A stretch of 48,685 bases of DNA from a virus (lineage: Duplodnaviria; Heunggongvirae; Uroviricota; Caudoviricetes). The notes below the pieces were generated by a model, which saw only the letters and a program-made list of their open reading frames with translations, did not search any database and was not told the DNA's origin. Made by a program: the position numbers and the translations under genes. The stretch lies in IMG/VR virus record IMGVR_UViG_2541047926_000004, positions 1-48,685 of that record; one strand, 5' to 3'. Shown piece after piece: positions 15,322-34,824 of this stretch; positions within the stretch are counted from its first letter, which is position 1, and every line of letters begins with the position of its first letter.

Positions 15322-16007
15322 ATACCCAATATTTACAGTATGTCCGCGAGCAACTCATTGTGGCTACTGCTGATTTGAGCGGAGCAACGAAAGGCCAGCT
15401 TGAAGCCTGGCTGGAGCATGCACAATTTGATACTGGTACATATAAACGAAAGAAGCCGCGCATTCTGGATGAGGTAACGGGCAAGATGATTACGCTGGAT
15501 AATCCGCCGATTTCCGGTAAGCAGTCGTACGCAAAAGGTTCATCCATTGCACTGGTCAGCCAGGTTGAGTTCTCAACATCTTCATGGCGCCGCGCGGTTC
15601 TGTCTCTCGAAGAACATCAGAAAGCGTGGTTGCTATGGAACTATAGCGAGAACGTGCGCTGGTGCTATCAGGTGGAAATCACTCAATGGGCGTGGGCAGA
15701 GTTCCGGGAGCAGCTCGGCGCGAAGAAGGTGGCCGGCAAAACGATGGAGCGCCTGAAGAAGCTTGTCTGGCTCGCGGCTCAGGACGTGAAAGCAGAGCTG
15801 GCAGGGCGTGAGACGTATGAATACCAAAAGCTTGCCGCCATGGTCGGAGTGACCCCGAAGAACTGGTCAGAAACGTTTACAGAACGGTGGGAGGAGATGA
15901 AAACCACCTTGCGGCGCCTTGATAGCGATTCTCTTTTGCAGGTAACGCGATCACGTTCACAACAAAAGGCGACAAATTTAGACTCAAGTCTTGCAAAACT
16001 GGATTAA
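15318..16007 (+). CDS. late-gene antiterminator Q
   Basis: 229 aa at the Q position just upstream of the lysis genes; AGGAG RBS. Confidence 0.8.
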   Translation: MNTQYLQYVREQLIVATADLSGATKGQLEAWLEHAQFDTGTYKRKKPRILDEVTGKMITLDNPPISGKQSYAKGSSIALVSQVEFSTSSWRRAVLSLEEHQKAWLLWNYSENVRWCYQVEITQWAWAEFREQLGAKKVAGKTMERLKKLVWLAAQDVKAELAGRETYEYQKLAAMVGVTPKNWSETFTERWEEMKTTLRRLDSDSLLQVTRSRSQQKATNLDSSLAKLD

Positions 16008-16167
16008 ATGCGTCATATTTGAGTCTACTTTGATATGCTGCCTTAACTTTAAGTGGCGGCATGAAGTTTGAAAAAAGTTGGTCGGCAAGCCATCAGTAAA
16101 AAGCAGTTAGACAGCGGCAGTCTTTAAAAGCAACGTAACGGCTCGAAAGTGAGCAAAAATACAAGCC

Positions 16168-16205
16168 CGAGGTTAACGCCTTGGGCTTTGTCGTTTCTGC
16201 AATCT
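16168..16205 (+). terminator. putative tR'-like terminator
   Basis: Hairpin AAGCCCGAGG-TTAACG-CCTTGGGCTT followed by a T-rich tract about 160 nt after Q. Confidence 0.35.
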
Positions 16206-16480
16206 CAGCGCTGTTTAAAGGTTTCGTACCCACAGCTGGAGCATTTGTAATAGTCTCTCTGAACTCCCAGCCCAATGAAATCGGGGTCATCTACGGTTCG
16301 GTCAAGGCTATAGCTCATCTGTGAGCATCTGGGGCATTTCTCCCCACCGCTGGATTTGATGTATGCCTCAAGCTCGGCGACCTGCTGTTTGAGACGATCC
16401 ACTTCGTCGGGTACTGTTTTTAACCTTTTCCACAGTGGGATTTTTTCCAGTAAAGAATCCAGTTCGGAGAGTATCCCCAT
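16205..16480 (-). CDS. hypothetical zinc-ribbon protein
   Basis: 91 aa; N-terminal predicted coiled coil then CPRC...(24 residues)...CSSC; ATG with GAGGTG 4 nt upstream. Confidence 0.45.
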   Translation of the reverse strand: MGILSELDSLLEKIPLWKRLKTVPDEVDRLKQQVAELEAYIKSSGGEKCPRCSQMSYSLDRTVDDPDFIGLGVQRDYYKCSSCGYETFKQR

Positions 16481-16676
16481 GAGTCACCTCGTTAATAAGA
16501 CGCTAGTTACGACAGGCGGCATTACGCTATGCAAGCCTGATATTTATGCCCTTGATATCACTACTGATGATAAAGGGAGTAAAGAACTCTACATTCTCAA
16601 GAATGGCGAAGAATTGATCCACTTCGAACTTACAGAAGAGAGTACGGAAAAGTTGTTATCCTTGCTCCGAGAGTAG
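16479..16676 (+). CDS. hypothetical small protein (doubtful)
   Basis: 65 aa from ATG 16479 whose start codon overlaps the start of the opposite-strand gene within a shared CATG. Confidence 0.25.
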   Translation: MSHLVNKTLVTTGGITLCKPDIYALDITTDDKGSKELYILKNGEELIHFELTEESTEKLLSLLRE

Positions 16677-17330
16677 GTCTATTTGCATTGCATCAATACC
16701 CCTGTCACATCGTCGTAGAGCATTGAAACGAGTTTCATCAGATGTTAAATTTTTAGTGTGGTGAATCCCCCTATGCGGAGGGGCGACCAGTCAAACTTTT
16801 TTGTCCAGGTTTGTTTGCGCGGAACTAGTCGGCTGGGGCTGTTCCACCGGGAGGCACCCGGCGCCACCTCCTTGACGGTATTGTTATTTTTCATGCCTGT
16901 TCGTCCGAGCAGGCTTTTTTTGCCCGCATTATCTTCATTGAAAACTGGCAACTCAGAGAATCATCCAAATTAAAAAAGCAGCAACGAGAGCGATTACTAA
17001 TACATTCTTCGCTTTTTCTCTTCTGCTGGCCTTCACAAAAGGATTCACTATCCGGCAGTGGCTACACACAAGTGATTCTGGGTTAATTAACTTTCCGCAG
17101 TAGGGACAGGGCTTGATAATCATTGGTACTAATTAAGTTGTGAGAACGTAGTCTCATTTAACCACATTTATCGAGTTGTTTTACTAATGGTCTAGTTATT
17201 TCAGACATATTCATCAATTTCAGGCTCACGGGAATCATCCGCTACGTGCTTTGTTGATAAATCCAGCCCGTGAAGCCTGACCCTTTTCAAACACACACAC
17301 AGCGCCATCCGAAAAATCGGAGGTGAGGCT

Positions 17331-17609
17331 ATGACCAGAATGAGCACCATTTACAGCAGACTTTCATATGGAACAGGAACCACGCTGACCGGCTGCGGTG
17401 TATCAGCGAAGGCATATGCCGAAACAGCTAAAACAGCAAAAGAGGTGTCCTGGATGTTGGCCGACAGAATTGCAGGGTTAAGCCTGAGCGACTGGGCAAT
17501 TATTGTCGGTATCGCATGCACTGTTATTACCTGTGCAGTGAACTGGTATTTCCGCTGGAAAGAACGGGAGGATCGGCGCAATGGCTATGCCACCAAAGCT
17601 GAAGAATAG
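17331..17609 (+). CDS. holin
   Basis: 92 aa; dual-start MTRM; transmembrane stretches; C-terminal basic tail similar to Qin/21-type holins; GGAGGTGAGG RBS. Confidence 0.8.
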
Positions 17610-19059: not shown

Positions 19060-19260
19060 ATGACCCCAGCTGAGTTCTACGATGTTTACAATATCAAACC
19101 GGCAGAAATGTTGACTGGTGAAACTGTTAACAACTTCGCTTCTCGTGTAATGGCACAGCAAACTAGTACGAGTGGAAACACAGGTGTTTGGTACTCACAA
19201 GGTACCGCTACACAATCGAAGCAAAACCAAACTACAAGTCATCAACTTTACACGTACTGA
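19060..19260 (+). CDS. hypothetical small protein with Q/S/T-rich C-terminal tail
   Basis: 66 aa; AGGAG RBS; stop 3 nt before the next gene. Confidence 0.4.
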   Translation: MTPAEFYDVYNIKPAEMLTGETVNNFASRVMAQQTSTSGNTGVWYSQGTATQSKQNQTTSHQLYTY

Positions 19261-19263
19261 TTT

Positions 19264-20166
19264 ATGCCTAATTGGAGCGACGTACTGGGCGAGATAACGG
19301 CTCTCGCCCATAAAAGTCCTATGGATGAGGTTCGCCGTAAATACTTATCTCAACTTTCGAATCATACTGGAAGAAATGTAATCACATATTACTCAGGGTG
19401 GTTACAGCATGGTGGTGCAGAAGTACGCCATCTTACTCAGATGACTGATGATGATAAGAACGGGTTGATGACAGCCATCAATGGTTTAGATGTATCAAAA
19501 GGGTTGGATTTGATACTTCATACTCCAGGTGGTGATATTGCCGCTTTGGAATCAATCGGGCATTACTTAAGGTCGAAGTTTGGAACTAACATCAGAGCAA
19601 TTGTTCCTATGATTTCAATGTCCTGCGGAACTATGCTTGCATGTTGTGCCAATGAAATCATCATGGGTAAACAGTCCAACATTGGCCCAATTGATCCTCA
19701 GTTCAACGGTTTCTCCACCCATGCCATCATTGAAGAATGGAATCGTGCGCAGACGGAAATTTTTCAAAATCCCGCAGCTGTTCAGATGTGGCAGTTCATT
19801 CTTCAAAAGCTAAACCCGACGATCATCGGCGAGTGTGAGAAAGCAATCAAATGGGCAAATGAGATTGTTAAGCATTGGCTTATGACAGGCATGTTTGATA
19901 ATGATCCTGAGGCAGAATCAAAAGCAACACATGTTTGTTCAGAGTTAAACAACCATCACACAACCTATACCCACTCGCGTCATATTCATTTTGATAAGGC
20001 GCAGAAAATTGGGTTGAATGTTACCGAACTTGAAAGTGATCAAGTACTTCAAGATTTGGTTTTGACTATACATCACAGCTACATGCATTCTTTTGGTGGA
20101 GCACCACTGGCAAAAATCATTGAAAATCATAACGGTAACGCAATGATTTGGAATATCCAGTCTTAA
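19264..20166 (+). CDS. ClpP/S49-like serine peptidase family protein (accessory)
   Basis: 300 aa; LILHTPGGDIAALESIGHYL resembles the ClpP/S49 motif also present in the prohead protease of this prophage (INSPGGDV); candidate Ser in MSCGTM. Confidence 0.55.
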   Translation: MPNWSDVLGEITALAHKSPMDEVRRKYLSQLSNHTGRNVITYYSGWLQHGGAEVRHLTQMTDDDKNGLMTAINGLDVSKGLDLILHTPGGDIAALESIGHYLRSKFGTNIRAIVPMISMSCGTMLACCANEIIMGKQSNIGPIDPQFNGFSTHAIIEEWNRAQTEIFQNPAAVQMWQFILQKLNPTIIGECEKAIKWANEIVKHWLMTGMFDNDPEAESKATHVCSELNNHHTTYTHSRHIHFDKAQKIGLNVTELESDQVLQDLVLTIHHSYMHSFGGAPLAKIIENHNGNAMIWNIQS

Positions 20167-20182
20167 TCCCCCCTGTCTGATT

Positions 20183-20210
20183 CCAGCCTCGCCTATGCGG
20201 GGCTTTTTTA
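20183..20210 (+). terminator. rho-independent terminator
   Basis: Hairpin AGCCTCGC-CTAT-GCGGGGCT followed by TTTTTT. Confidence 0.5.
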
Positions 20211-20317
20211 CGCGTATTGCATACTCAAATCAAACTAGAGTCATTTAGAAGAGAATTCAAAACGGCGGTCGGACCTGTGTTTTCTTATGGGTCCTCCCGG
20301 CGGGGTTGCCTACCACG

Positions 20318-20329
20318 GGGCGGCGCGTG
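20318..20329. other. putative cosN cohesive-end site
   Basis: GGGCGGCGCGTG resembles lambda cosN GGGCGGCGACCT (recalled); about 120 bp upstream of the small terminase gene. Confidence 0.3.
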
Positions 20330-20446
20330 CGCGGAAAACGGCTAGTTTTTGCGATCTAGGGTCATCATCATCATTTATGCAGGTCTTTGATTTGTTTAAA
20401 GTCCGTTTTCGCAAGATGTCGAATCGTTTAAAAAGTGTTCACCATC

Positions 20447-20935
20447 ATGGACCAGGAAATCGCCGCATTAAAACTGAATATCAACCAGCTTGCCGGGATA
20501 ACCGGCGTACACCGTCAGACGGTTGCCGCGAGGTTGAAAAATGTCGAACCTGCGCCAGGCAGCAACAGCAAATTAAAGCTCTATCTGGTTACAGACATTC
20601 TGACCGAACTGATGATCCCCACCGTGTCGACGAATATCGACGATATGGATCCATCCGACAGGCTCGCTCACTGGAAAGCAGAGAACGAGAGGCTGAAGTT
20701 TGAACAAGATACGGGGCAGTTAATACCCGCTGATGAAGTGGCGCGTGAATTCTCATTGATGGCGAAAGCCGTCGTCATGGTACTTGAAACTCTCCCTGAC
20801 ATACTCGAACGCGACTGCGCATTAACGCCGACTGCGGTTTCCCGCGTACAAAACGTTATCGATGACCTGCGCGACCAGATGGCGGAGAGGGCGAAGGACG
20901 CTGAAACAGAGGAGGAAGAGCCAGAGGAGGACTGA
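20447..20935 (+). CDS. terminase small subunit (Nu1-like)
   Basis: HTH LAGITGVHRQTVAARL near N-terminus; acidic C-terminus; immediately upstream of the large terminase. Confidence 0.7.
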   Translation: MDQEIAALKLNINQLAGITGVHRQTVAARLKNVEPAPGSNSKLKLYLVTDILTELMIPTVSTNIDDMDPSDRLAHWKAENERLKFEQDTGQLIPADEVAREFSLMAKAVVMVLETLPDILERDCALTPTAVSRVQNVIDDLRDQMAERAKDAETEEEEPEED

Positions 20936-23037
20936 TGGCAAAGCGGGCATCCGCCAGGGGCATCCGCCGCGATGTTTCCGGTATTTTACGTGCCCCGCGT
21001 CGTATGCCGGTGGCCGATGCGGTCGGTACATATATGCGCGTGCCAATGGGGGCAGGAAACTCAGTTCCATGGGACCCGGATCTTGCACCTTATGTGATTG
21101 AGCCGATGAATTGCCTGTCCTCGCGTGAATACGATGCGGTTGTGTTTGTTGGCCCGGCGCGAACGGGTAAAACCATCGGGCTGATTGACGGATGGATTGT
21201 CTATAACATCGTCTGCGATCCGGCAGATATGCTCGTCATTCAGGTATCAGAGGAAAAGGCGCGCGAGCATTCAAAAAAACGTCTGGACCGTACTTTTCGC
21301 TGCAGCCCTGAAGTTAAAAACCGGTTAAGCCCGAGGCGTAACGATAACAACGTCTACGATCGTACATTCCGCGCCGGTAACTATCTGAAGCTCGGCTGGC
21401 CATCCGTCAATATTATGTCGTCCTCTGACTATAAAAGTGTGGCGCTGACGGATTACGACCGCTTTCCTGAAGATATCGACGGGGAGGGCGACGCTTTTTC
21501 ACTGGCGTCGAAACGTACCACGACATTTATGTCCTCCGGGATGACGCTGGTTGAGAGTTCACCCGGCAGGGATATCAGAGACACAAAATGGCGGCGAACC
21601 ACGCCTCATGAAGCCCCTCCAACTACCGGAATTTTATCACTCTATAACCGTGGCGACCGCCGCCGCCTTTACTGGCCATGCCCGCATTGTGGGGAGTATT
21701 TCCAGCCGGAAATGGACAATATGACCGGGTACCGCGACAGCAGCGATCCCGTACTGGCCAGTGAAGCCGCGTTTCTACAGTGCCCGGCCTGTAAAGGCAG
21801 GATCACACCGGACATGAAGCGTGCGCTGAACATGAAATGTGTCTGGCTGAGGGATGGGCAGAGTATCGACCGTAAAGGTCAGGTAAGTGGTGATGGCCGT
21901 CGTTCCCGTATTGCCTCCTTCTGGATGGAAGGTCCGGCAGCTGCATACCAGACCTGGGCGCAGCTTATTTATAAGTACCTGACCGCCGAGCAGGAATACG
22001 AATCCACGCGCAGCGAAGAAACCCTGAAAACGGTGATCAACACCGATTTCGGCAGACCCTATCTGCCTCGGGCAAGCCTGGAGCAGCGTAAAAGTGAATT
22101 GCTCGAGCAGCGTGCCGAGGATGTTCCAAAACGTTCGGTACCGGACGGCGTGCAGTTTCTCACCGCGACCGTGGACGTGCAGGCCGGGCGCGACCGGCGA
22201 TTTGTAGTGCAGGTTACGGGTTACGGAAGTATGGGTGAGCGCTGGATAATTGACCGTTACAACATACGGTATTCGCTGCGCTGTGACGGCAACGGGGAAA
22301 GCATACAGGTTGATCCGGCAAGCTATCCGGAGGACTGGGATCTTTTGCTCACTGACGTCTTTGAGAAAACGTGGCCTCTGGCATCTGACCCGTCAAAGGG
22401 CATGCGGCTTATGTCGATGGCCGTGGACTCCGGGGGCGAGGACGGTGTAACGGATAATGCCTACAAGTTCTGGCGCAGATGCCGCCGGGAGGGGCTGGGT
22501 AAGCGTATCTATCTCTTCAAAGGTGACAGTGTTCGTCGCAGCAAACTTATCCAGCGAACGTTTCCCGACAACACCGGCAGATCAACACGCCGCGCACAGG
22601 CGACCGGGGATGTGCCTCTTTATCTTCTCCAGACCGATGCCCTTAAAGACCGGGTGAACAATGCGCTGTGGCGTGATTCACCCGGCCCTGGCTATGTGCA
22701 TTTCCCCGCCTGGCTGGGCAGCTGGTTCTATGACGAATTGACATATGAGGAACGCTCGAATGAAGGGAAGTGGAGTAAGCCCGGCCGGGGCGCAAACGAA
22801 GCATTCGACCTGCTCGTTTATGCAGATGCGCTCGCCATCCTTAGTGGATACGAAAAAATTAAATGGCCGTCAGCTCCTGAGTGGGCACGGAGGGAAACGT
22901 GGATCGAGGACACGCAGACGGAAACTGGCGAAGTGCCATCCCCGTCGCCTGCGCCGAAATCTAAATCAAAACCAAAACGTGAGAAGCCCGTAACCGAGCA
23001 GGCTAATCCGTGGTCTTCGTCAGGAGGTTGGGTGTGA
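20935..23037 (+). CDS. A: terminase large subunit (lambda A family)
   Basis: 700 aa; Walker A VGPARTGKT; lambda gpA-like. Confidence 0.95.
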   Translation: MAKRASARGIRRDVSGILRAPRRMPVADAVGTYMRVPMGAGNSVPWDPDLAPYVIEPMNCLSSREYDAVVFVGPARTGKTIGLIDGWIVYNIVCDPADMLVIQVSEEKAREHSKKRLDRTFRCSPEVKNRLSPRRNDNNVYDRTFRAGNYLKLGWPSVNIMSSSDYKSVALTDYDRFPEDIDGEGDAFSLASKRTTTFMSSGMTLVESSPGRDIRDTKWRRTTPHEAPPTTGILSLYNRGDRRRLYWPCPHCGEYFQPEMDNMTGYRDSSDPVLASEAAFLQCPACKGRITPDMKRALNMKCVWLRDGQSIDRKGQVSGDGRRSRIASFWMEGPAAAYQTWAQLIYKYLTAEQEYESTRSEETLKTVINTDFGRPYLPRASLEQRKSELLEQRAEDVPKRSVPDGVQFLTATVDVQAGRDRRFVVQVTGYGSMGERWIIDRYNIRYSLRCDGNGESIQVDPASYPEDWDLLLTDVFEKTWPLASDPSKGMRLMSMAVDSGGEDGVTDNAYKFWRRCRREGLGKRIYLFKGDSVRRSKLIQRTFPDNTGRSTRRAQATGDVPLYLLQTDALKDRVNNALWRDSPGPGYVHFPAWLGSWFYDELTYEERSNEGKWSKPGRGANEAFDLLVYADALAILSGYEKIKWPSAPEWARRETWIEDTQTETGEVPSPSPAPKSKSKPKREKPVTEQANPWSSSGGWV

Positions 23038-23249
23038 ATCCAGCAGATATTCAAAACATGATCGACCGCTACGCTGCAGCCGAGCTGTCTGTTCTGGAGG
23101 GGAAATCAATCACTTTCAACGGGCAGCAGATGACGCTCGAAAACCTGTCGGAAATCAGAAAAGGCCGTCAGGAATGGGAGCGACGACTGGCTACGCTCAA
23201 TAACAAACGCCGCGGGCGACCCGGCTACAGGCTGGCGAGGTTTGGATGA
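23034..23249 (+). CDS. W: head-tail joining protein W
   Basis: GTG preceded by AGGAGG; C-terminus RRGRPGYRLA resembles lambda gpW; track ORF starts at 23010. Confidence 0.7.
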   Translation: MNPADIQNMIDRYAAAELSVLEGKSITFNGQQMTLENLSEIRKGRQEWERRLATLNNKRRGRPGYRLARFG

Positions 23250-24745
23250 GTTTTTTAGATGATGCGATAGGCCTGTTTTCACCAGGCTGGAAAGCCTCAC
23301 GCCTGCGTGCCCGCGCAGTTATTAAGGCGTATGAGGCGGTAAAGCAAACGCGTACCCACAAAGCCCAGAAGGAAAATCGTTCAGCCGATCAGCTCAGCCA
23401 GATGGGGGCGGTTTCACTGAGGCAGCAGGCGCGCTGGCTGGACAACAACCACGATCTGGTGATTGGCGTTTTCGACAAGCTGGAAGAAAGGGTGGTGGGT
23501 GCGAAGGGCATCATAGTTGAACCGCATCCGATGCTGACTAACGGGAAGATAGCTAAAAAGCTGGCCACTGATATCCGCAGAAAGTGGGGCGAATGGTCCG
23601 TAAGACCCGATGTTACAACCCAGTTTACCCGCCCCATGCTGGAGCGGCTGATGCTGCGAACGTGGCTCCGGGACGGTGAGGTATTTGCTCAGCTGGTTCG
23701 CGGTACCGGAAATGGCCTTCAGCCGGTTGCTGGCGTGCCGTTCTGGCTGGAAGCGCTGGAGCCGGACTTCGTGCCGATGAACAGCGATGCCGCCACCCAG
23801 CTCAATCAGGGCGTTTTTGTCGATAACTGGGGGCGCCCGAAAAAATATCAGGTCTATAAAAGCCTGCCAGTATCCGGGCGTCAGTTCGATACCAAAGAGA
23901 TAGATGCAGAAAACATGCTTCATCTCAAATTCACACGACGCCTGCACCAGACCCGCGGAACGTCTCTATTGTCAGGTGTTCTGATGCGTCTGAGCGCGCT
24001 GAAAGAGTACGAGGACTCGGAGCTTACCGCTGCCAGAATTGCTGCCGCACTCGGCATGTATATCAAAAAAGGCGACGGACAGAGCTTCGAGTCTGATTCC
24101 AGCAGCGATGACCGCGAGCTGATGATTCAGCCCGGTATGCTCTATGACGAGCTGCAGGCCGGGGAAGAAATCGGGATGATTAAATCCGATCGCCCGAACC
24201 CTAACCTCGAGTCGTTTCGTAACGGACAGCTGCGTGCCGTGTCCGCCGGCAGTCGCCTCAGCTTTTCCAGCACATCCAGAAACTACAACGGAACGTACAG
24301 TGCCCAGCGGCAGGAGCTTGTCGAGTCAACCGACGGATATCTGATTCTTCAGGACTGGTTCATCGGTTCAGTGACCCGGCCCATGTACCGGGCCTGGCTG
24401 AAGATGGCTATTGCTGCCGGAGAAATCAAGCTGCCGAGAGGCATCGATATGGACTCGCTTTATAACGCGGTTTATTCGGGGCCCGTTATGCCGTGGATTG
24501 ATCCCGTTAAAGAAGCGAATGCCTGGAAAACGCAGATCCGCGGCGGTGCTGCTACCGAATCCGACTGGATACGTGCCAGCGGTCGCAACCCGGATGATGT
24601 TAAGTCACGCCGTAAAGCGGAGGTTGACGAGAACCGTGAACAGGGCCTGGTGTTTGACACCGACCCCGCCAATGATAAAGGAGGCACCAGTGCCGAAGCC
24701 AAAGAACCGGGCGCGCCACCGTCCGAAAGCCAGCGCAAAAAGTAA
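23246..24745 (+). CDS. B: portal protein (lambda B family)
   Basis: 499 aa between W and the head protease. Confidence 0.9.
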   Translation: MSFLDDAIGLFSPGWKASRLRARAVIKAYEAVKQTRTHKAQKENRSADQLSQMGAVSLRQQARWLDNNHDLVIGVFDKLEERVVGAKGIIVEPHPMLTNGKIAKKLATDIRRKWGEWSVRPDVTTQFTRPMLERLMLRTWLRDGEVFAQLVRGTGNGLQPVAGVPFWLEALEPDFVPMNSDAATQLNQGVFVDNWGRPKKYQVYKSLPVSGRQFDTKEIDAENMLHLKFTRRLHQTRGTSLLSGVLMRLSALKEYEDSELTAARIAAALGMYIKKGDGQSFESDSSSDDRELMIQPGMLYDELQAGEEIGMIKSDRPNPNLESFRNGQLRAVSAGSRLSFSSTSRNYNGTYSAQRQELVESTDGYLILQDWFIGSVTRPMYRAWLKMAIAAGEIKLPRGIDMDSLYNAVYSGPVMPWIDPVKEANAWKTQIRGGAATESDWIRASGRNPDDVKSRRKAEVDENREQGLVFDTDPANDKGGTSAEAKEPGAPPSESQRKK

Positions 24746-24758
24746 TTCGTGGTTCCGC

Positions 24759-26705
24759 ATGCAGGCCAGCAATAACAGCGAGGCCGACATTTTTATCTAT
24801 GACGAAATCGGGTACTGGGGCGTAACGGCGAAACAGTTCGTCAATGATCTCCGGGCACTTGGGGACGTCACCCACATCAACCTTTATATCAACTCGCCCG
24901 GTGGTGATGTCTTCGACGGTATTGCTATTTATAACGCGCTGAAGCACCACGGCGCGGCGATTACCGTGCATATCGACGGTCTCGCGGCCTCCATGGCCTC
25001 GGTGATTGCGATGGTAGGCAATCCGGTCATCATGCCTGAAAACACGATGATGATGATCCATAAGCCCTGGGGGTTTGCTGGTGGTGACGCGAGCGATATG
25101 CGCGACTATGCGGATCTTCTCGACAAGGTTGAATCCGTTCTTATCCCGGCTTACGCGCAAAAAACCGGAAAATCCACCGAAGAAATTGCGGCAATGCTGG
25201 AAGACGAAACATGGATGAGCGGCAGCGAGTGCCTTGAACTGGGTTTTGCCGACCAGGTGACTCCATCCCTGCAGGCTATGGCCTGTATCCATTCAAAACG
25301 TATTGAGGAATTTGAAAAAATGCCAAAAAGCATTCGCAACATGCTCACCCCGCCGCGCAATACTACCCAGCGTGACCCGGTTATTACCCAGTCTCAGGCA
25401 CCGCAGGCAAAAACTGACCCGGCGCCGGATGAAAATGCGATCCGCGCGAAGGTGATGGCTGAGCAGAAAGCCCGTGTTAACGCCATCGGTGATCTCTTTG
25501 CCATGTTCGGTAATAAACACATGGAACTGCAAAATCAGTGCGTGGCCGACCCTGATTGTTCCGTTGATAAGGCGAAAGATTTGCTGCTGGCAGAGCTCGG
25601 TAAAACGGCCACGCCATCCAACAAAACCACACAACAGCATATTTATGCGGGCAACGGTAATTTCGTTGCGGATGGTATTCGCCAGGCGCTGATGGCGCGT
25701 GCCGGTTTTGAAGGCCAGGAGCGGGATAACGTTTATAACGGTATGACGCTGCGCGAGTATGCGCGCATGGCCCTGACAGAAAAAGGTATCGGTGTATCCA
25801 GCTACAATCCGATGCAGATGGTTGGCCTAGCGCTGACGCACAGCACCTCTGACTTTGGCAATATTCTGCTGGATGTGGCGAACAAAGCGCTGCTTCAGGG
25901 CTGGGAAGAATCCCAGGAAACCTTCGAACTGTGGACCAAAAAAGGCCAGCTGTCAGACTTCAAAACGGCGCATCGTGTCGGTATGGGTGGTTTCCCTTCT
26001 CTGAGACAGGTTCGCGAGGGGGCGGAGTACAAGTACGTCACTACCAGTGATAAAGGCGAAACCATCGCGCTTGCCACTTATGGTGAAATTTTCTCTGTTA
26101 CCCGCCAGGCGATCATTAACGACGATCTGAACCAGCTCACCGACGTGCCGATGAAGATGGGGCGCGCGGCGAAAGCAACGATTGGCGATCTGGTTTACGC
26201 CATCCTGACCAAAAACCCGAAGCTCTCCGACGGCAAACCGCTGTTCCATGCCGATCACAAGAACCTGAGCGCGGGCGCAATTTCTGTGGCCAGCCTGGAC
26301 GAAGCGCGCAAGCTGATGCGCCTGCAAAAGGAAGGTGAGCGTACCCTGAATATCCGCCCAGCCTACATGCTGGTGCCTGTAGCTCTGGAAACCCTGGCGA
26401 ATCAGACTATCAAGTCGGCCAGTGTTAAAGGTGCTGATATTAATGCCGGCATCGTTAACCCGATCCAAAACTTTGCAGAGGTCATCGCTGAACCGCGTCT
26501 GGATGAAGCGGATGCGAAAGCCTGGTATCTGGCCGCCGCGAAGGGCACCGACACCATCGAGGTCGCTTATCTCAACGGTGTCGATACGCCTTACATCGAT
26601 CAGCAGGAAGGCTTCACCACTGATGGTATCGCCACGAAAGTGCGTATTGATGCCGGTGTGGCGCCGCTGGACCATCGCGGCATGACCAAATCCACTGGTC
26701 AATAA
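24759..26705 (+). CDS. prohead protease (ClpP-like) fused to major capsid protein
   Basis: 648 aa from ATG 24759; N-terminal INSPGGDV protease motif, C-terminal capsid domain; track ORF 24411.. is an upstream extension overlapping the portal. Confidence 0.85.
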   Translation: MQASNNSEADIFIYDEIGYWGVTAKQFVNDLRALGDVTHINLYINSPGGDVFDGIAIYNALKHHGAAITVHIDGLAASMASVIAMVGNPVIMPENTMMMIHKPWGFAGGDASDMRDYADLLDKVESVLIPAYAQKTGKSTEEIAAMLEDETWMSGSECLELGFADQVTPSLQAMACIHSKRIEEFEKMPKSIRNMLTPPRNTTQRDPVITQSQAPQAKTDPAPDENAIRAKVMAEQKARVNAIGDLFAMFGNKHMELQNQCVADPDCSVDKAKDLLLAELGKTATPSNKTTQQHIYAGNGNFVADGIRQALMARAGFEGQERDNVYNGMTLREYARMALTEKGIGVSSYNPMQMVGLALTHSTSDFGNILLDVANKALLQGWEESQETFELWTKKGQLSDFKTAHRVGMGGFPSLRQVREGAEYKYVTTSDKGETIALATYGEIFSVTRQAIINDDLNQLTDVPMKMGRAAKATIGDLVYAILTKNPKLSDGKPLFHADHKNLSAGAISVASLDEARKLMRLQKEGERTLNIRPAYMLVPVALETLANQTIKSASVKGADINAGIVNPIQNFAEVIAEPRLDEADAKAWYLAAAKGTDTIEVAYLNGVDTPYIDQQEGFTTDGIATKVRIDAGVAPLDHRGMTKSTGQ

Positions 26706-26725
26706 AAAACAGTCCTGACAAACAG

Positions 26726-26748
26726 ATGCCCGTAAGGGCTTTTTTTAT
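26726..26748 (+). terminator. rho-independent terminator or attenuator after the capsid gene
   Basis: GCCCGTAAGGGC hairpin followed by TTTTTTT; second hairpin CAGCCCCGCATGGGGCTG follows. Confidence 0.5.
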
Positions 26749-26766
26749 ACCTGAAACCAGCCCCGC

Positions 26767-27114
26767 ATGGGGCTGAATGGAGAAGTTATGGCTAAGAACT
26801 ATGCGCAGGACGGGAAAACGATCCCGCTGGTAAACAGTGGTGCAACCGATATTCAGAGCGGCGACCCGGTTGTTGTTGGAAAACTTATCGCGGTGGCAAT
26901 TACCGATATCCCGGCTGGCGATACCGGGGACGGTTTTACTGAGGGTGTTTTCCTCTTGCCAAAAGTATCCGCAGATGCGGTTACTGCCGGGGCGCAGGTG
27001 TATCTGAAGGACGGCAAAATCCAGACCGATGGAACGGATGCCGTTGCCGCAGGCATCGCCTGGGAAGATGCACCGGCAAACACCACCGTTGTTGAAGTGA
27101 AGATTAATGTCTAA
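26767..27114 (+). CDS. putative head decoration/cement protein
   Basis: 115 aa directly after the capsid gene; assignment by position and size only. Confidence 0.4.
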   Translation: MGLNGEVMAKNYAQDGKTIPLVNSGATDIQSGDPVVVGKLIAVAITDIPAGDTGDGFTEGVFLLPKVSADAVTAGAQVYLKDGKIQTDGTDAVAAGIAWEDAPANTTVVEVKINV

Positions 27115-27382
27115 TCCCTTTGATCGGATGGCGGCTCGCATGGACGCGGCCACCATAAAAAAGATGGGGAAAACGGCTCTGATTAACGGAATCACATACG
27201 ACGTTATCTCTGCTGAGTTGCTTGAAGAGATGGGGCCGTTATCAGGGAATTTACGGTCTCTGGTGGTATTCAGTGGAGATTATACCCCGCGACGAAACGA
27301 TGAAGTGGTTTGGGAAGGCAAAAACTGGACCGTCACACGTCACGAACTGTTTAACGGGAAACCTCGTATCTTCATTGAGTAG
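27107..27382 (+). CDS. FII-like head-tail joining protein
   Basis: 91 aa; position and loose resemblance to lambda FII. Confidence 0.45.
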   Translation: MSNPFDRMAARMDAATIKKMGKTALINGITYDVISAELLEEMGPLSGNLRSLVVFSGDYTPRRNDEVVWEGKNWTVTRHELFNGKPRIFIE

Positions 27383-27631
27383 GAGGGGCTATGTCGATCA
27401 AAGGCCTCGAGCAGGCTATCGCAAACCTCAACAGCATCAGCAAAACGGCCGTTCCACGTGCCTCTGCCCAGTCGGTTAACCGTATTGCCGGGCAGGCCAT
27501 CAACCGAAGCGTTTCTGTCGTTTCGAAATCGACTCGAGTACCTCGAAAACTGGTTAAGCAACGTGCCCGGTTACGGCGGGCTACCGTCAGTAAACCACGC
27601 GCACTTATTCGGGTGAACCGGGGAAATCTCC

Positions 27632-28970
27632 CATAAGCGCTAACTTAAGGGTTGTGGTATTACGCCTGATATGATTTAACGTGCCGATGAATTACTCTCA
27701 CGATAACTGGTCAGCAATTCTGGCCCATATTGGTAAGCCCGAAGAACTGGATACTTCGGCACGTAATGCCGGGGCTCTAACCCGCCGCCGCGAAATTCGT
27801 GATGCTGCAACTCTGCTACGTCTGGGGCTGGCTTACGGCCCCGGGGGGATGTCATTACGTGAAGTCACTGCATGGGCTCAGCTCCATGACGTTGCAACAT
27901 TATCTGACGTGGCTCTCCTGAAGCGGCTGCGGAATGCCGCCGACTGGTTTGGCATACTTGCCGCACAAACACTTGCTGTACGCGCCGCAGTTACGGGTTG
28001 TACAAGCGGAAAGAGATTGCGTCTTGTCGATGGAACAGCAATCAGTGCGCCCGGGGGCGGCAGCGCTGAATGGCGACTACATATGGGATATGATCCTCAT
28101 ACCTGTCAGTTCACTGATTTTGAGCTAACCGACAGCAGAGACGCTGAACGGCTGGACCGATTTGCGCAAACGGCAGACGAGATACGCATTGCTGACCGGG
28201 GATTCGGTTCGCGTCCCGAATGTATCCGCTCACTTGCTTTTGGAGAAGCTGATTATATCGTCCGGGTTCACTGGCGAGGATTGCGCTGGTTAACTGCAGA
28301 AGGAATGCGCTTTGACATGATGGGTTTTCTGCGCGGGCTGGATTGCGGTAAGAACGGTGAAACCACTGTAATGATAGGCAATTCAGGTAATAAAAAAGCC
28401 GGAGCTCCCTTTCCGGCACGTCTCATTGCCGTATCACTTCCTCCCGAAAAAGCATTAATCAGTAAAACCCGACTGCTCAGCGAGAATCGTCGAAAAGGAC
28501 GAGTAGTTCAGGCGGAAACGCTGGAAGCAGCGGGCCATGTGCTATTGCTAACATCATTACCGGAAGATGAATATTCAGCAGAGCAAGTGGCTGATTGTTA
28601 CCGTCTGCGATGGCAAATTGAACTGGCTTTTAAGCGGCTCAAAAGTTTGCTGCACCTGGATGCTTTGCGTGCAAAGGAACCTGAACTCGCGAAAGCGTGG
28701 ATATTTGCTAATCTACTCGCCGCATTTTTAATTGACGACATAATCCAGCCATCGCTGGATTTCCCCCCCAGAAGTGCCGGATCCGAAAAGAAGAACTAAC
28801 TCGTTGTGGAGAATAACAAAAATGGTCATCTGGAGCTTACAGGTGGCCATTCGTGGGACAGTATCCCTGACAGCCTACAAAACGCAATTGAAGAACGCGA
28901 GGCATCGTCTTAACGAGGCACCGAGGCGTCGCATTCTTCAGATGGTTCAACCCTTAAGTTAGCGCTTATG
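27632..28970 (+). mobile_element. IS186 (IS4 family)
   Basis: 1339 bp; terminal inverted repeats CATAAGCGCTAACTTAAGGGTTG; flanked by 10-bp direct duplication GGAAATCTCC (27622..27631 and 28971..28980). Confidence 0.85.
27681..28799 (+). CDS. IS186 transposase
   Basis: 372 aa matching IS186 transposase as recalled. Confidence 0.9.
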   Translation: MPMNYSHDNWSAILAHIGKPEELDTSARNAGALTRRREIRDAATLLRLGLAYGPGGMSLREVTAWAQLHDVATLSDVALLKRLRNAADWFGILAAQTLAVRAAVTGCTSGKRLRLVDGTAISAPGGGSAEWRLHMGYDPHTCQFTDFELTDSRDAERLDRFAQTADEIRIADRGFGSRPECIRSLAFGEADYIVRVHWRGLRWLTAEGMRFDMMGFLRGLDCGKNGETTVMIGNSGNKKAGAPFPARLIAVSLPPEKALISKTRLLSENRRKGRVVQAETLEAAGHVLLLTSLPEDEYSAEQVADCYRLRWQIELAFKRLKSLLHLDALRAKEPELAKAWIFANLLAAFLIDDIIQPSLDFPPRSAGSEKKN

Positions 28971-29290
28971 GGAAATCTCCCCGCCATAAAACTCGGTCCC
29001 GCCAGTGTTCGTCTGTCCCGCAGGAAACGGGATAAGTCGGGTGCAAACAGTGTGCTCAGAATAGGCCCGTTTCGTTTTCCAGGCGCTTTTATCCAGCAAC
29101 TGGCAAATGGTCGATGGCATGTGCTGCGACGCACCACAAAGAACAGGTATCCCATTGAAGTGGTCAGCATTCCCCTGGCTGTTCCCCTTACAGAGGCCTT
29201 CCGTGCTGAGCTACCACGGCTTATGGACGAAAACATGCCAGCAGTTATGCGCCAGAACCTGCAAAACCAACTGAGGTTGATACTCAAACG

Positions 29291-29689
29291 ATGAAACACC
29301 CGCAGATACGCGCCGCCGTTCTGACGGCCCTGAAACGCAGTATTACAGAGCAAATAACCTGGTTCGACGGCAGTCCGGGATTTCTGGAAGAAGAAGATCT
29401 GCCTGCTGTAGCCGTCTATCTGACAGACGCGAGAGCTTCAGAAGATAGCGTGGATGAAGATATGTGGACCGCACTGCTGCATATCGAGGTCTTTTTGAAG
29501 GCAAAAGAGACCGATTCCGCTCTGGATGCCTGGATGGAAGAAAAAGTGTACCCCGCTCTGGCTGATATCCCAGAATTGCTGCCCCTAATCGAACTGATGA
29601 ATGCAAATGGCTATGACTATCAGCGAGATGAGGAAGTGATGATGTGGGGATCAGCCGATCTCAGTTATTCAATCAGCTATGTAATGTGA
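29291..29689 (+). CDS. U: tail terminator protein U
   Basis: 132 aa resembling lambda U (MKH..RAAVL..., C-terminal GYDYQRD). Confidence 0.75.
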
Positions 29690-29696
29690 GGATCCT

Positions 29697-30434
29697 ATGG
29701 CCACACCAAACCCGCTGGCGCCAACAAAAGGTGCCGGTACCACTCTCTGGGTTTACACCGGAACCGGTGACCCCTATGCCAATCCGCTTTCAGACGTTGA
29801 CTGGTTGCGCCTCGCAAAGATTAAAGACCTGCAGCCCGGTGAACTGACGGCTGAATCTGAAGATGACACCTACATCGATGATGAGAATGCCGACTGGACA
29901 TCAACGATGCAGGGGCAGAAATCAGCCGGTGAAACCAACCTGACGCTCGCGTGGATGCCGGGAGATTCCGGACAGCAGGACCTGGTGAACTGGTTCGATG
30001 AGGGCACCGTGAGGGGATATAAAATCAAATACCCAAATGGTGTTGTCGATGTGTTTAAGGGCTGGGTGAGCAGCCTCGGTAAAACCATAGCGTCCAAAGA
30101 GGTCATGACCCGCACGGCCAAAATCACAAACAACGGCAAACCATCGCTGGCAGAGGACAGCGGTACCGCGCCGATTGCTGTCACGGGGATCAGTCTGGAT
30201 AAATCCACTGCAACTGTAGCGGTCGCAGCCACAACGCAACTGGTGGTTTCAGTCCTTCCGGCCAGTGCGTCAGATAAATCCTTCCGCGTAGCCAGCTCTG
30301 ATCCTTCAAAAGCAACGGTCACTGTTAACGGCAATACCCTGACTGTCACCGGCGTGGCGGCGGGCACCGTCGAAATCATCGTTATGAGCAATGACGGTAA
30401 CTTTGTGGCGATCTGCAAAGTCACTGTTTCCTGA
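29697..30434 (+). CDS. V: major tail protein V with C-terminal Ig-like domain
   Basis: 245 aa; GAGGA RBS; C-terminal Big_2-like repeat. Confidence 0.85.
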
Positions 30435-30472
30435 TAACCGGGGCGTGAGCCCCGTTCCGACCCGGAGTAAAT

Positions 30473-30895
30473 ATGTTTCTAAAAAGCGAACTGCTGGAAA
30501 GTAACGGCAGCAGCGTCACATTGTTCCAGCTTTCGGCGCTTCAGCGTATTGAATACCTCGAATACCTGAAGCAGCTGGAAGCAGTTGAAGCTGGCGATTT
30601 CCAGGCGGCCATCACCCTCACCGTAAAAAGTGGGGCGTTCCTCGTGGCGATGTCGCTCTGGCACGGCCACGAACTGAAAGGCTCCCAGGGAGAAAATGCG
30701 GCGGCGGAAGTGGCAAAGATTCAGGATGAGGTCATGCAGTCATGGCCGACCGAACTGGTTGCCGAAGCGGAATATAAGGTGAAGCTCCTGTCCGGGATGA
30801 TTGCGCCGGTAACTGATGACCAGGCAGCATCCGCCGAAGAAGGTTATAAACCCGCTGAACCCGTTACTGCGGAAAAGCCCTCGCCAGTGAGCTGA
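30473..30895 (+). CDS. G: tail assembly chaperone G
   Basis: 140 aa resembling lambda G (MFLK..., C-terminal PAEPV). Confidence 0.85.
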   Translation: MFLKSELLESNGSSVTLFQLSALQRIEYLEYLKQLEAVEAGDFQAAITLTVKSGAFLVAMSLWHGHELKGSQGENAAAEVAKIQDEVMQSWPTELVAEAEYKVKLLSGMIAPVTDDQAASAEEGYKPAEPVTAEKPSPVS

Positions 30896-30903
30896 AATTT
30901 GCC

Positions 30904-31224
30904 ATGAAACTGGCGCGTGAGTTCGGTCGCCCGGACTGGCGTGCCATGCTTGCTGGCATGTCCTCAACGGAGTACGGCGACTGGAAAATCTTCTATCAGG
31001 ACAATTACTTTCATGATGCGCAGCTGGACGCACACTTCTCCGGCTTGCTCTACACCATCTCAACCCTGTTTTTTGCCGATCCGGAGTTAACCCCGGACAG
31101 TTTCAGCATTCTTAATACTACACCGGAACCCATCGACATTGATGAACCGGATGACAATACGCTGATGGCGAAGGCTGCAGGTATTTCAGGAGGCGTGCGC
31201 TATGGCCCAGACGGCAGTCGGTGA
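30904..31224 (+). CDS. T: T portion of G-T frameshift product
   Basis: ORF in the -1 frame relative to G, open from 30859; candidate slip site GGAAAAG at 30871..30877. Confidence 0.65.
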   Translation: MKLAREFGRPDWRAMLAGMSSTEYGDWKIFYQDNYFHDAQLDAHFSGLLYTISTLFFADPELTPDSFSILNTTPEPIDIDEPDDNTLMAKAAGISGGVRYGPDGSR

Positions 31225-33718: not shown

Positions 33719-33723
33719 CAGTT

Positions 33724-34071
33724 ATGACGATAGAAACATTCCCCTGGGGCATTAAGGTCTCCAGCCAGCCCACAGAGGGAAGCAAAGACACAGTCAGGAA
33801 GGTCCAGTTCGGCGACGGGTACGCACAGGTGAGCGGCTCCGGCCTGAATGATGAGATTCGTACCTATGAGTTTTCCTTTTCCGGTGATCCGACTACAGCG
33901 AATGAAATTCATGCCTTCCTTCGGCGGCATAAAGTGAAGTCGTTTATTTTCACTCCGCCTTTCGGCGATACCGCTCTGTGGCGTGTCGAGGCTGACACGC
34001 TCAAAAAGGTGGTTAAAAACGTAAAAGTGATAACCGTAACCGCAACGTTTGAACAGGCATTTGCACCATGA
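33724..34071 (+). CDS. M: minor tail protein M
   Basis: 115 aa matching lambda M. Confidence 0.9.
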   Translation: MTIETFPWGIKVSSQPTEGSKDTVRKVQFGDGYAQVSGSGLNDEIRTYEFSFSGDPTTANEIHAFLRRHKVKSFIFTPPFGDTALWRVEADTLKKVVKNVKVITVTATFEQAFAP

Positions 34072-34823
34072 GTCTTAATGCTGATTATCAAAAACTCGAG
34101 CCGGGCAATGAAGTCCGGCTTTTTTCTGTCGATGGCACAGCGTTCGGTATGTCAGATGTACTCCGCTTTCACGCACATAACATCGCGCATACCCCGGAAG
34201 AGATTGAGGCTGCAGGCGGGGATGAGAATAAACTTCCGGCGAAGTCCATCTGGTGGCAGGGGGAGGAGTATAAAGCCTGGCCGTGTCAGGTTGAGGGTAT
34301 TGAAGCGACCACGGACGGTACCAGCCCACAGCCAAAACTGAGTGTGGCGAACCTGGACAGCTCGATCTCAGCGCTCTGTCTGGCGTATGACGATCTGCTG
34401 CAGGCGAAAGTGAGTATCCACGACACGCTGGCACAGTATCTGGACGCCAGAAATTTTCCGCAGGGCAATCCCACCGCAGACCCGTCACAGGAAAAGCTGA
34501 AGGTCTTTTATATCGATGCCAGAAGCACCGAGACGGATGAAGTTGTCGAATTTACGCTTTCCAGTCCGATGGATTTACAGGGCCAGATGATTCCGACGCG
34601 GCAGCTGCATTCGTTATGCAGCTGGTGCATCCGGAACAAGTACCGGACCGGCGACGGCTGCGACTATGCCGGAACGCGCTATTTCGACAAAAACAATAAT
34701 CCGGTTGACGATCCCTCGCTGGATGTCTGCAACGGCACGCTGACGGCCTGCAAGCTCCGGCACGGAGACAACAACGAGCTGCCGTTCGGCGGTTTCCCGG
34801 GTACATCTCTTATCAGGAGCTGA
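34068..34823 (+). CDS. L: minor tail protein L
   Basis: 251 aa matching lambda L, including C-terminal Cys cluster. Confidence 0.9.
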   Translation: MSLNADYQKLEPGNEVRLFSVDGTAFGMSDVLRFHAHNIAHTPEEIEAAGGDENKLPAKSIWWQGEEYKAWPCQVEGIEATTDGTSPQPKLSVANLDSSISALCLAYDDLLQAKVSIHDTLAQYLDARNFPQGNPTADPSQEKLKVFYIDARSTETDEVVEFTLSSPMDLQGQMIPTRQLHSLCSWCIRNKYRTGDGCDYAGTRYFDKNNNPVDDPSLDVCNGTLTACKLRHGDNNELPFGGFPGTSLIRS

Positions 34824-34824
34824 T

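Follow-up and report, generated by a model that had tools for sequence, protein, structure and literature searches.

What is encoded between the antitermination gene Q and the holin gene of a lambdoid prophage whose database record leaves this interval blank? The question is raised by a stretch of viral DNA of 48,685 nucleotides (hereafter the window; IMG/VR record IMGVR_UViG_2541047926_000004), which is identical to the chromosome of Escherichia coli NCTC9040 (NZ_LR134247.1, where window positions 16000-17340 are 2095042-2096382) and which holds a prophage of the lambdoid type with Q, holin, lysozyme and spanin all encoded on the plus strand. Q ends 1323 bp before the holin starts, close to the 1.3 kb given in an initial annotation made from the letters of the DNA alone, and the RefSeq annotation of this gap contains no feature. 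The initial annotation had placed in it, among other things, a minus-strand open reading frame (ORF) of 91 amino acids (aa) with two CxxC motifs and a plus-strand ORF of 65 aa whose start it shares. It is this pair that we analyse here, under the names ZnR (for its zinc ribbon) and partner, and jointly as the cassette. Both were found to be genes, and together they move between prophages in a fixed orientation towards the lytic operons.

Two genes with overlapping starts

The evidence that ZnR and its partner are genes comes from the comparison of homologues. Homologues of ZnR of the same length, with 49-81% identity, are found in Klebsiella, Photorhabdus, Xenorhabdus, Morganella, Arsenophonus, Salmonella, Ewingella, Achromobacter and Chromobacterium, and the homologues as a whole span ten or more genera. 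An exhaustive profile search retrieved 491 representatives (of 50%-identity clusters) at E<=1e-3, nearly all of them 90-100 aa long, and no match to ZnR was obtained by tblastn in collections of 50,697 phage records and 72,556 plasmids. The exact protein of the window is encoded on 460 contigs, mostly of Klebsiella, and the GenBank annotations of Klebsiella call both ZnR and the partner. The pairwise ratios of nonsynonymous to synonymous substitution rates (dN/dS) are 0.05-0.21, with an excess at third codon positions. Judged by these substitution patterns ZnR is a real gene under purifying selection, and the minus-strand ORF proposed earlier, with its CPRC (residues 49-52) and CSSC (residues 80-83) motifs and its GAGGTG Shine-Dalgarno sequence, is thereby upheld.

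For the partner, every locus was oriented on ZnR and the opposite strand was translated from the shared CATG. The protein obtained in this way is 65-66 aa long in E. coli, Trabulsiella, Salmonella, Morganella, Xenorhabdus (two species), Photorhabdus and Arsenophonus; longer versions that share its N-terminal domain occur in Ewingella (105 aa), Achromobacter (74), Chromobacterium (78) and Paraburkholderia (142). The identity to the E. coli protein is 38-77% in the Enterobacterales and goes down to about 20% overall, with Gly14, Pro20, Phe49, Leu59 and Leu63 as invariant residues. With dN/dS values of 0.11-0.40 and, again, a third-position excess, the partner by the same measure is a real gene under purifying selection.

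The two start codons overlap head to head within a single CATG, as had been noticed before, and each of the two Shine-Dalgarno sequences lies in the coding sequence of the other gene. More specifically, GAGGTG of ZnR is the complement of the His3-Leu4 codons of the partner, and GGAGAG of the partner is the complement of the Leu4-Ser5 codons of ZnR. The CATG is kept in all listed Enterobacterales copies that have an intact start and also in Achromobacter, Chromobacterium and Paraburkholderia; GAGGT is kept in all Enterobacterales copies, and GGAGAG is conserved with Achromobacter included. In a more distant prophage the genes overlap head to head by 20 nt in place of 2. Although one ORF of 65 aa could be due to chance, a chance pair is unlikely, because the pair and its overlap recur in at least ten genera with dN/dS values of 0.05-0.40.

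The tight overlap has a visible consequence in Raoultella ornithinolytica (locus L013, 5998-6000), where one T-to-G change has turned CATG into CAGG. The ATG of ZnR is lost and that of the partner has become CTG, so that a single mutation affects both starts.

It might be argued that neither ORF is expressed and that the interval is simply a long late leader containing a small RNA (sRNA). We consider this extremely improbable, since dN/dS is well below 1 with a third-position excess in both ORFs, and since length, start and Shine-Dalgarno motifs are conserved across genera in a ZnR family of 491 representatives, both members of the pair being called in the Klebsiella annotations. In its favour count the empty gap in the output of the Prokaryotic Genome Annotation Pipeline (PGAP), the negative search for a ZnR promoter discussed below and the existence of decayed copies, namely those with a frameshift (E. 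coli DS26-1), with AGG for ATG (Raoultella) or with a truncated ZnR (Trabulsiella).

Distribution, position and polarity of the cassette

The CATG pair was seen in prophages of about ten genera: Escherichia, Salmonella, Morganella, Xenorhabdus, Photorhabdus, Arsenophonus, Ewingella, Chromobacterium, Achromobacter and Paraburkholderia. Within E. coli the intact cassette is present in 3 of 5426 complete genomes and the whole Q-to-holin arrangement of the window in one, and the copy of DS26-1 is frameshifted. The prophage of KMi029 has the same Q, the same promoter block behind Q, the same sRNA gene (STnc100), the same third small ORF (of the DUF2116 type) and the same holin, without the cassette and with a different terminator. 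In MIN9, L37 and Raoultella, on the other hand, the cassette stands behind another Q-like gene, DUF1133. The earlier suggestion that the segment varies between related prophages and is not a fixed leader is well supported by these comparisons.

Three kinds of position could be distinguished. The cassette lies between Q and holin in E. coli, Salmonella, Xenorhabdus and, behind a Q of a different family, Morganella. A second kind extends from the lysis or replication genes to the terminase; it is represented by Ewingella and by the decayed cassette of DS26-1, which lie between the lysis genes and the terminase (in DS26-1 its small subunit), while the Chromobacterium copy is located upstream of the terminase. 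The third kind, between cro-like and cII-like genes, is found in Achromobacter and Paraburkholderia, and in locus L031 the cassette follows just downstream of the cro-like gene. Taken together, the distribution over hosts, Q types and positions indicates that ZnR and its partner are a mobile two-gene cassette.

The polarity of the cassette is constant. In all phage contexts (11/11) the partner points the same way as the lytic genes on its flanks, and ZnR is encoded antisense to these genes. Moreover, a Trabulsiella prophage has kept the partner together with its Shine-Dalgarno sequence and lost the body of ZnR, and no phage copy was found that has ZnR without a partner-like ORF.

The STnc100 gene is a recurrent neighbour. 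In E. coli and Raoultella it is found downstream of the cassette and in Salmonella upstream, and Trabulsiella has copies on both sides. In the species T. guamensis (locus L021; 690-902, 1257-1455, 3969-4166) two STnc100 copies bracket the partner, and one of them has replaced most of ZnR. Because the copies flank the cassette on varying sides and one of them takes the place of the ZnR body, the conserved STnc100 sequence appears to serve as a recombination linker for the exchange of cargo, in which case its copies would mark the recombination boundaries of accessory genes. Matches to IsrK and to the C4 antisense RNA (immunity of the P1/P7 type) are found about 3 kb away in the same Trabulsiella locus.

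The initial annotation had likened the interval to the slot in which Shiga toxin (Stx) phages carry toxin genes and tRNAs. Indeed, the window resembles the Q-stx-S slot of these phages in having cargo between tR' and holin, the Xenorhabdus copies of the cassette adjoin a tRNA, and in Stx2 phages STnc100 follows stx2B at a distance of 75 nt (PMC12370729).

Could ZnR and its partner be two functionally unrelated small morons, with the overlap of their starts a frozen accident of compaction in which indels would be lethal to one of the genes? Dual coding does impose such a constraint, as Leu-Ser of ZnR spells GGAG of the partner and His/Asn-Leu of the partner spells GAGGT of ZnR, and relatives of ZnR without a partner exist. 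The pair, however, is inherited together down to a partner identity of about 20%, in Gamma- as well as Betaproteobacteria, the distant prophage with the overlap of 20 nt has retained the head-to-head arrangement in another geometry, and compaction alone leaves the constant polarity towards the lytic operons unexplained. We thus hold an accident of this kind to be very unlikely.

Several neighbouring genes were noted in passing. The Salmonella loci L023 (1177-1830, 2806-3237) and L024 have a HicA/HicB module and a further HicB-like gene on the flanks of the cassette, all antisense to the late operon. The prophage of E. coli ES5, which has the same Q, carries another antisense gene in the gap (locus L003, 2146-2556, minus strand), encoding a "coiled-coil domain-containing protein" of 136 aa (WP_016063448.1). 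In DS26-1 (locus L030, 2228-2557) PGAP has called a "hypothetical protein", WP_063079835.1, antisense to the frameshifted remnant of ZnR, and this appears to be a spurious ORF.

Possible functions of ZnR and its partner

The AlphaFold model of ZnR (predicted local distance difference test, pLDDT, 83) has a helix at residues 3-11, a long helix at residues 15-43 and a three-stranded zinc ribbon. The best Foldseek matches are the N-terminal ribbon of NrdR, RPA12, ribbons of the TFIIS type and viral proteins named "NrdR-N-like" or "TFIIS-type", with weak E-values of 0.0025-0.1, and PF12760, the ribbon of IS1595 transposases, is seen in 12 of the 13 family members, below threshold. ZnR shares with the NrdR-N, TFIIS/Rpb9/RPA12 and IS1595 ribbons the three-stranded C4 CxxC...CxxC layout, all matches being sub-threshold. 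It differs from them by an insertion of 9 residues and an invariant R-T-x-x-D-P-x-F motif, and its N-terminal LLEKIPLW helix and coiled coil occur in none of the NrdR, TFIIS and IS1595 families. The invariant R61-T62-x-x-D65-P66 resembles, and does not equal, the acidic hairpin RSADEP of TFIIS. As modelled, ZnR is probably a coiled-coil, oligomeric (dimeric) small protein of the nucleic-acid-binding type without a family assignment.

Two more specific assignments were rejected. As a TFIIS-type ribbon (PF01096) the window protein gave no match, 2 of 13 relatives matched at E>=0.025, and phmmer against Rpb9/TFS gave E=1.5. As an HNH endonuclease (phrog_8828) it matches profile positions 1-68 of 205 only and ends after the ribbon; the longer relatives of ZnR have no HNH domain and no match to phrog_8828 either.

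The model of the partner (AF2, pLDDT 71) shows five beta strands and a C-terminal helix. No significant family, defence-system or structural match was obtained for the partner in Pfam, NCBIfam, PHROGs, PADLOC or PDB. Searches of the PDB by sequence and by fold likewise gave no significant relative for ZnR or the partner, a search of NCBIfam returned nothing meaningful for either, and the hits of ZnR in PADLOC-DB 2.0 were limited to weak matches of its zinc ribbon to Cas12a (E=0.0055 and 0.0086). As far as these searches reach, the cassette is without a characterised relative, widespread and mostly unannotated.

The explanation that we prefer, and that we consider slightly more probable than all else taken together, is that the Q-to-holin interval is built as a mosaic, in which accessory modules ("morons") have been inserted in the leader of the late operon, and that the cassette within it behaves like a switch, with ZnR made in the lysogen and the partner in the lytic phase. 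The anatomy of the locus, the reality of both genes, the mobility of the cassette and its polarity rule were established directly; from them we infer the timing of expression, the antisense silencing, an interaction between ZnR and its partner, and a cellular function of ZnR.

In the lysogen ZnR would be expressed like other antisense morons. This is the most plausible timing because ZnR is oriented like the other morons of the slot, i.e. HicAB in Salmonella and the coiled-coil gene in ES5. Upon induction, the RNA polymerase modified by Q would pass both terminators of the interval and proceed into the lysis genes, and the read-through RNA would be the mRNA of the partner and at the same time antisense to ZnR and to the DUF2116-type ORF. 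The initial annotation had concluded that the two overlapping genes cannot both have conventional promoters. That conclusion needs revision: the plus-strand ORF lies in the Q-dependent transcript from the putative late promoter pR' and needs no promoter of its own, so that the promoter problem is confined to ZnR.

Given the architecture of the cassette, the two mRNAs must be complementary to each other at both ribosome-binding sites. Because the two translation-initiation regions are mutually complementary, silencing of ZnR by lytic transcription is to be expected, and the synthesis of ZnR would be shut off by collision of polymerases and by an RNA duplex over its ribosome-binding site. The partner would be produced simultaneously and would probably antagonise the ZnR protein, as is suggested by the strict co-inheritance and by the partner-only remnant in Trabulsiella. 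ZnR itself most plausibly exerts an effect on transcription or directed at DNA, be it on the host or on phages that come in. It could act as an effector in defence, regulate the transcription of the phage or modulate the host.

The first of these roles, a specific functional version of the explanation given above, would make the cassette an anti-phage system of the toxin-antitoxin or abortive-infection type with self-immunity, in which ZnR, expressed in the lysogen, blocks the development of superinfecting phages and the partner, made exclusively from the lytic transcript of the prophage itself, is the antidote by which the resident phage escapes. Such a role is in line with the constant polarity (11 of 11 phage contexts), with the Trabulsiella remnant that has the partner only and with the zero count of phage copies that have ZnR only, and likewise with the HicAB modules and a Schlafen-like ATPase among the neighbours and the occupation of moron/defence hot spots. 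Nevertheless we regard it as unlikely. ZnR has no enzymatic domain, neither protein resembles a known toxin or antitoxin (Pfam, NCBIfam, PHROGs, PADLOC), the Cas12a zinc-ribbon matches in PADLOC are trivial, and the stand-alone chromosomal relatives of ZnR suggest that it is not toxic. Moreover, the genes are divergent and do not form an operon. The type II toxin-antitoxin systems also consist of two small, adjacent and co-inherited genes; these are, in contrast, arranged in a co-directional and autoregulated operon and not divergently with overlapping starts. The membership tests did not place the cassette among these systems, the known defence systems, TFIIS or HNH proteins.

Alternatively, ZnR could be a small DNA-binding regulator of the phage's own lytic transcription, such as a secondary repressor, a roadblock or an RNA polymerase factor at antitermination sites, with the partner as regulated target or anti-repressor in a miniature divergent switch of the cI/cro kind. 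In lambda, nutR/tR1 lies after cro, and the cassette is always found just downstream of antitermination or terminator sites (after Q/tR' or after cro). Divergent pairs of a regulator and its target are the commonest bacterial arrangement, the ribbon is similar to the ribbons of NrdR, of proteins of the TFIIS type and of IS1595 transposases, and a dimer is suggested by the coiled coil. There is, however, no intergenic space for an operator, no operator in the form of a repeat or palindrome was noticed near the CATG (no search aimed at repeats was made), membership in the TFIIS family is unsupported (PF01096 at E>=0.025 in 2 of 13 members; phmmer E=1.5), and sister prophages manage without the cassette. 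A role of this kind is therefore quite unlikely in our view.

The proposed switch, with ZnR in the lysogen and the partner in the lytic phase, has to be weighed against a number of observations. Its weakest point is that no credible or conserved sigma-70 promoter was found for ZnR. By consensus scan, relaxed scan of 10 orthologous loci and position weight matrix (PWM) scan, no sigma-70-like promoter was detected within 420 nt upstream of ZnR in E. coli, nor a positionally conserved one among the orthologous loci (n=10, relaxed scan), and for this reason the lysogenic expression of ZnR has to be regarded as putative. A candidate promoter on the plus strand (TTGAGA-17-TACTGT, 16389-16417), inside ZnR and not conserved, could express the partner in the lysogen too. 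Furthermore, PGAP calls neither gene in the RefSeq records of E. coli, and every fold or family similarity of ZnR is below significance (E about 0.003-0.1). Finally, distant relatives of ZnR stand alone in non-phage neighbourhoods, and it follows that ZnR has no intrinsic need for a partner. All these points weigh against the switch.

With respect to known systems the similarity is one of logic only. The bor-type antisense morons of lambda and the HicAB and coiled-coil genes of the sister prophages are, like ZnR, small genes opposite to the late operon. Being inserted in that direction, such morons are insulated from the lytic promoters and opposed by late transcription. ZnR differs from a bor-type moron in that it is obligatorily paired with a gene on the sense strand with which it shares a start overlap, and in that no promoter was identified for it. 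The RNA-IN/RNA-OUT pair of IS10 and the type I toxin-antitoxin systems (symE/symR, tisB/istR-1) have in common with the cassette the complementarity of opposite strands over Shine-Dalgarno sequence and start, by which the RNA in excess can block the translation of the other; for the cassette this follows from the geometry alone. The difference is that both RNAs of the cassette encode conserved proteins and that one of the two belongs to a long transcript of a phage operon.

That the cassette represents a new class of two-protein switch in prophages, based on antisense mRNAs with two functions, in which a nucleic-acid-binding effector of the lysogenic state is turned off through its RNA, and probably also through its protein, by a partner that lies head to head with it and whose transcription is confined to the prophage's lytic operon, is a tentative proposal to which we assign a rather low probability. 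If true, the class would combine defence or host reprogramming with built-in self-immunity. If the reciprocity between lysogeny and lysis holds, the cassette would be a compact natural toggle made of protein-coding antisense genes and a candidate for a new prophage module of defence or host control.

The late leader, the sRNA gene and the remaining features

The coordinates of the cassette and of the elements around it are collected in Table 1.

Table 1. Features of the Q-to-holin interval and of its two flanking genes, numbered as in the window.
Feature	Position	Strand	Details
Antitermination protein Q, 229 aa	15318..16007	+	PF06323 E=1e-93, phrog_304; RefSeq WP_087934210.1
Candidate pR'	15991..16019	+	-35 TTGCAA 15991-15996, 17-nt spacer, -10 CATATT 16014-16019; PWM score 7.6
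Q-linked initial transcribed region	16020..16066	+	TGAGTCTACTTTGATATGCTGCC...GGCGGC
Hairpin terminator	16163..16198	both	stem 16163-16188, 11 bp, T-rich tail
ZnR, 91 aa, coiled coil and C4 zinc ribbon	16205..16480	-	unannotated in RefSeq
Partner Shine-Dalgarno GGAGAG	16466..16471	+	own site
Shared CATG	16478..16481	both	head-to-head 2-nt overlap of both start codons
Partner, 65 aa	16479..16676	+	unannotated in RefSeq; co-directional with late operon
ZnR Shine-Dalgarno GAGGTG	16485..16490 (complement)	-	4 nt before ZnR ATG
sRNA promoter (predicted)	16723..16751	+	TTGAAA, 17 nt, TGtTAAATT (extended -10); predicted start ~16756-16759
STnc100-family sRNA gene (predicted)	16729..16925	+	Rfam RF02076, 84.5 bits against gathering 47, E=9.8e-17
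sRNA intrinsic terminator	16895..16921	+	GCCTGTTCGTCCGAGCAGGC + T7; -13.5 kcal/mol, z = -4.5
DUF2116-type protein, 56 aa	16953..17123	-	zinc ribbon CPYC...CSHC, hydrophobic C-terminal tail; unannotated in record
Holin, lysis cassette gene 1	17331..17609	+	PF16080 + PF04971, phrog_20

The putative late promoter pR' overlaps the stop codon of Q, its -35 element lying within the last Q codons, and it is followed by a region that probably serves in loading of Q and pausing. Promoter and transcribed block are kept in ES5 and KMi029 (16020-16066 is identical in both), and the core TGAGTC.A.TTTGATA is retained behind a divergent PF06323 Q in Salmonella (L023). The elements co-conserved with the Q type in these three are TTGC.-17-.A.ATT and TGAGTC.A.TTTGATA. 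Among prophages that share the Q type the similarity stops at about 16066, in agreement with a Q-utilisation site that moves together with Q and a downstream part that is exchangeable. The region transcribed after pR' contains a -10-like TTGATAT, which is only suggestive of a pause element. Another candidate for pR', TTCACA-17-TAGACT inside Q (15956-15984), was dropped as it is not conserved in ES5 or Salmonella.

In the established lambdoid model, the transcripts from pR' end at the first terminator as long as the RNA polymerase has not been modified by Q. Two intrinsic terminators were found downstream of the candidate pR' in the interval, at 16163-16188 and at 16895-16914. The first is the hairpin with a T-rich tail that the initial annotation had correctly described as tR'-like. 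It has a folding energy of -19.2 kcal/mol (z = -4.0) on the plus strand and of -14 kcal/mol on the minus strand, where a U5 run follows, 17 nt past the stop codon of ZnR. The hairpin may therefore act as a tR'-type terminator in one direction and as the terminator of ZnR in the other. It belongs to the cassette block (16152-16784) and travels with it.

The interval shares with the lambdoid late leader (pR'-qut-tR', lambda 6S RNA) the upstream Q, a conserved putative sigma-70 promoter, terminator hairpins and the lysis genes that follow. It differs by the type of Q (PF06323), by the presence of two terminators and by three extra genes, two of which are antisense, and its Q-binding element and pause site are candidates only.

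Farther downstream, the initial annotation had recognised several hairpins in 16700-16930 and taken them for the structured non-coding tail of the leader. The hairpins are there, CCCCC/GGGG at about 16767-16783 and GCCTG...CAGGC followed by T7 (z = -4.5), but they belong to an independent and already described sRNA gene, STnc100 (RF02076), with a predicted promoter of its own. The match runs end to end (model positions 1-206 of 206). The promoter is the best promoter match in 15900-17400, and its elements are kept in KMi029 in spite of unrelated sequence further upstream; the mature sRNA probably extends from about 16758 to 16922.

A consensus of six STnc100 copies from five genera consists of a long-range closing helix and three hairpins, and 9 of its 25 consensus pairs show compensatory changes on both sides. 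The minimum free energy of the single sequence is not exceptional for the region (z = -0.95), so that the support for the structure comes from the covariance model and the covariation. The copy of the window has the family's conserved GGUGAAUCCCC...GGGG and CCGGGAGGCACCCGG hairpins with the long-range helix that closes them, and it too is located between the Q/stx position and the holin of a lambdoid prophage and ends in a Rho-independent terminator. It is unlike the other copies in its 3' tail and terminator. Furthermore, the prophage of the window has no stx, its host is not an enterohaemorrhagic E. coli, and the sRNA gene comes after a ZnR/partner cassette.

STnc100 overlaps the experimentally detected Hfq-binding sRNA EcOnc27/sRNA103 of E. 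coli O157 (PMC12711010), and it is related to PasD of prophages of enteropathogenic E. coli (EPEC), which adjoins Q and the holin-lysozyme genes (bioRxiv 10.64898/2026.05.13.724894). By family assignment 16729-16925 is thus a member of a described family of Hfq-binding sRNAs and, in the window, a predicted gene. It is known biology, yet it is unannotated in the NCTC9040 genome. The annotation is hereby corrected, and a regulator of the STnc100/EcOnc27 family, discussed mainly for Stx and EPEC prophages, is placed with its own predicted promoter in a non-Stx prophage.

The first reading of the interval was partly borne out; it overlooked a third small gene. The protein of 56 aa scores against PF09889 with E=2.5e-5 and 24.6 bits, below the cut-off of 26.8, and an identical protein carries the NCBI name DUF2116 family and occurs in E. 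coli, Salmonella and Citrobacter (583 contigs). Its hydrophobic tail looks membrane-spanning when judged by eye. The ORF runs antisense to the late operon, and it moves as part of the block that contains the holin start (16758-17340). It has no obvious Shine-Dalgarno sequence, and tblastn against the phage records gave no match. Three small genes in one "intergenic" region of 1.3 kb escape the standard pipelines.

The RefSeq locus tags run from EL149_RS10305 (Q) to RS10315 (holin) and lack RS10310 (window 16007-17331), which suggests that a gene in the gap was once called and later dropped at re-annotation. The roughly 115 bp that abut the holin start (17217-17330) are conserved far more widely than the remainder of the gap, with 74-98% identity in more than 100 E. 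coli genomes, and this conservation suggests a control or leader element linked to the holin.

Outside the interval, a tRNA-Thr (CGT) on the plus strand at 1369-1444, for which RefSeq has no tRNA feature, was found with ARAGORN and Rfam (71.8 bits). It falls within an annotated minus-strand hypothetical coding sequence (1164-1592) of the exo-bet-gam region. The structural genes at 19100-36000, encoding terminase, portal, protease, capsid, sheath, tube and baseplate, are mostly frameshifted or fragmented in RefSeq, which reflects either decay of the prophage or homopolymer errors of the NCTC long-read assembly.

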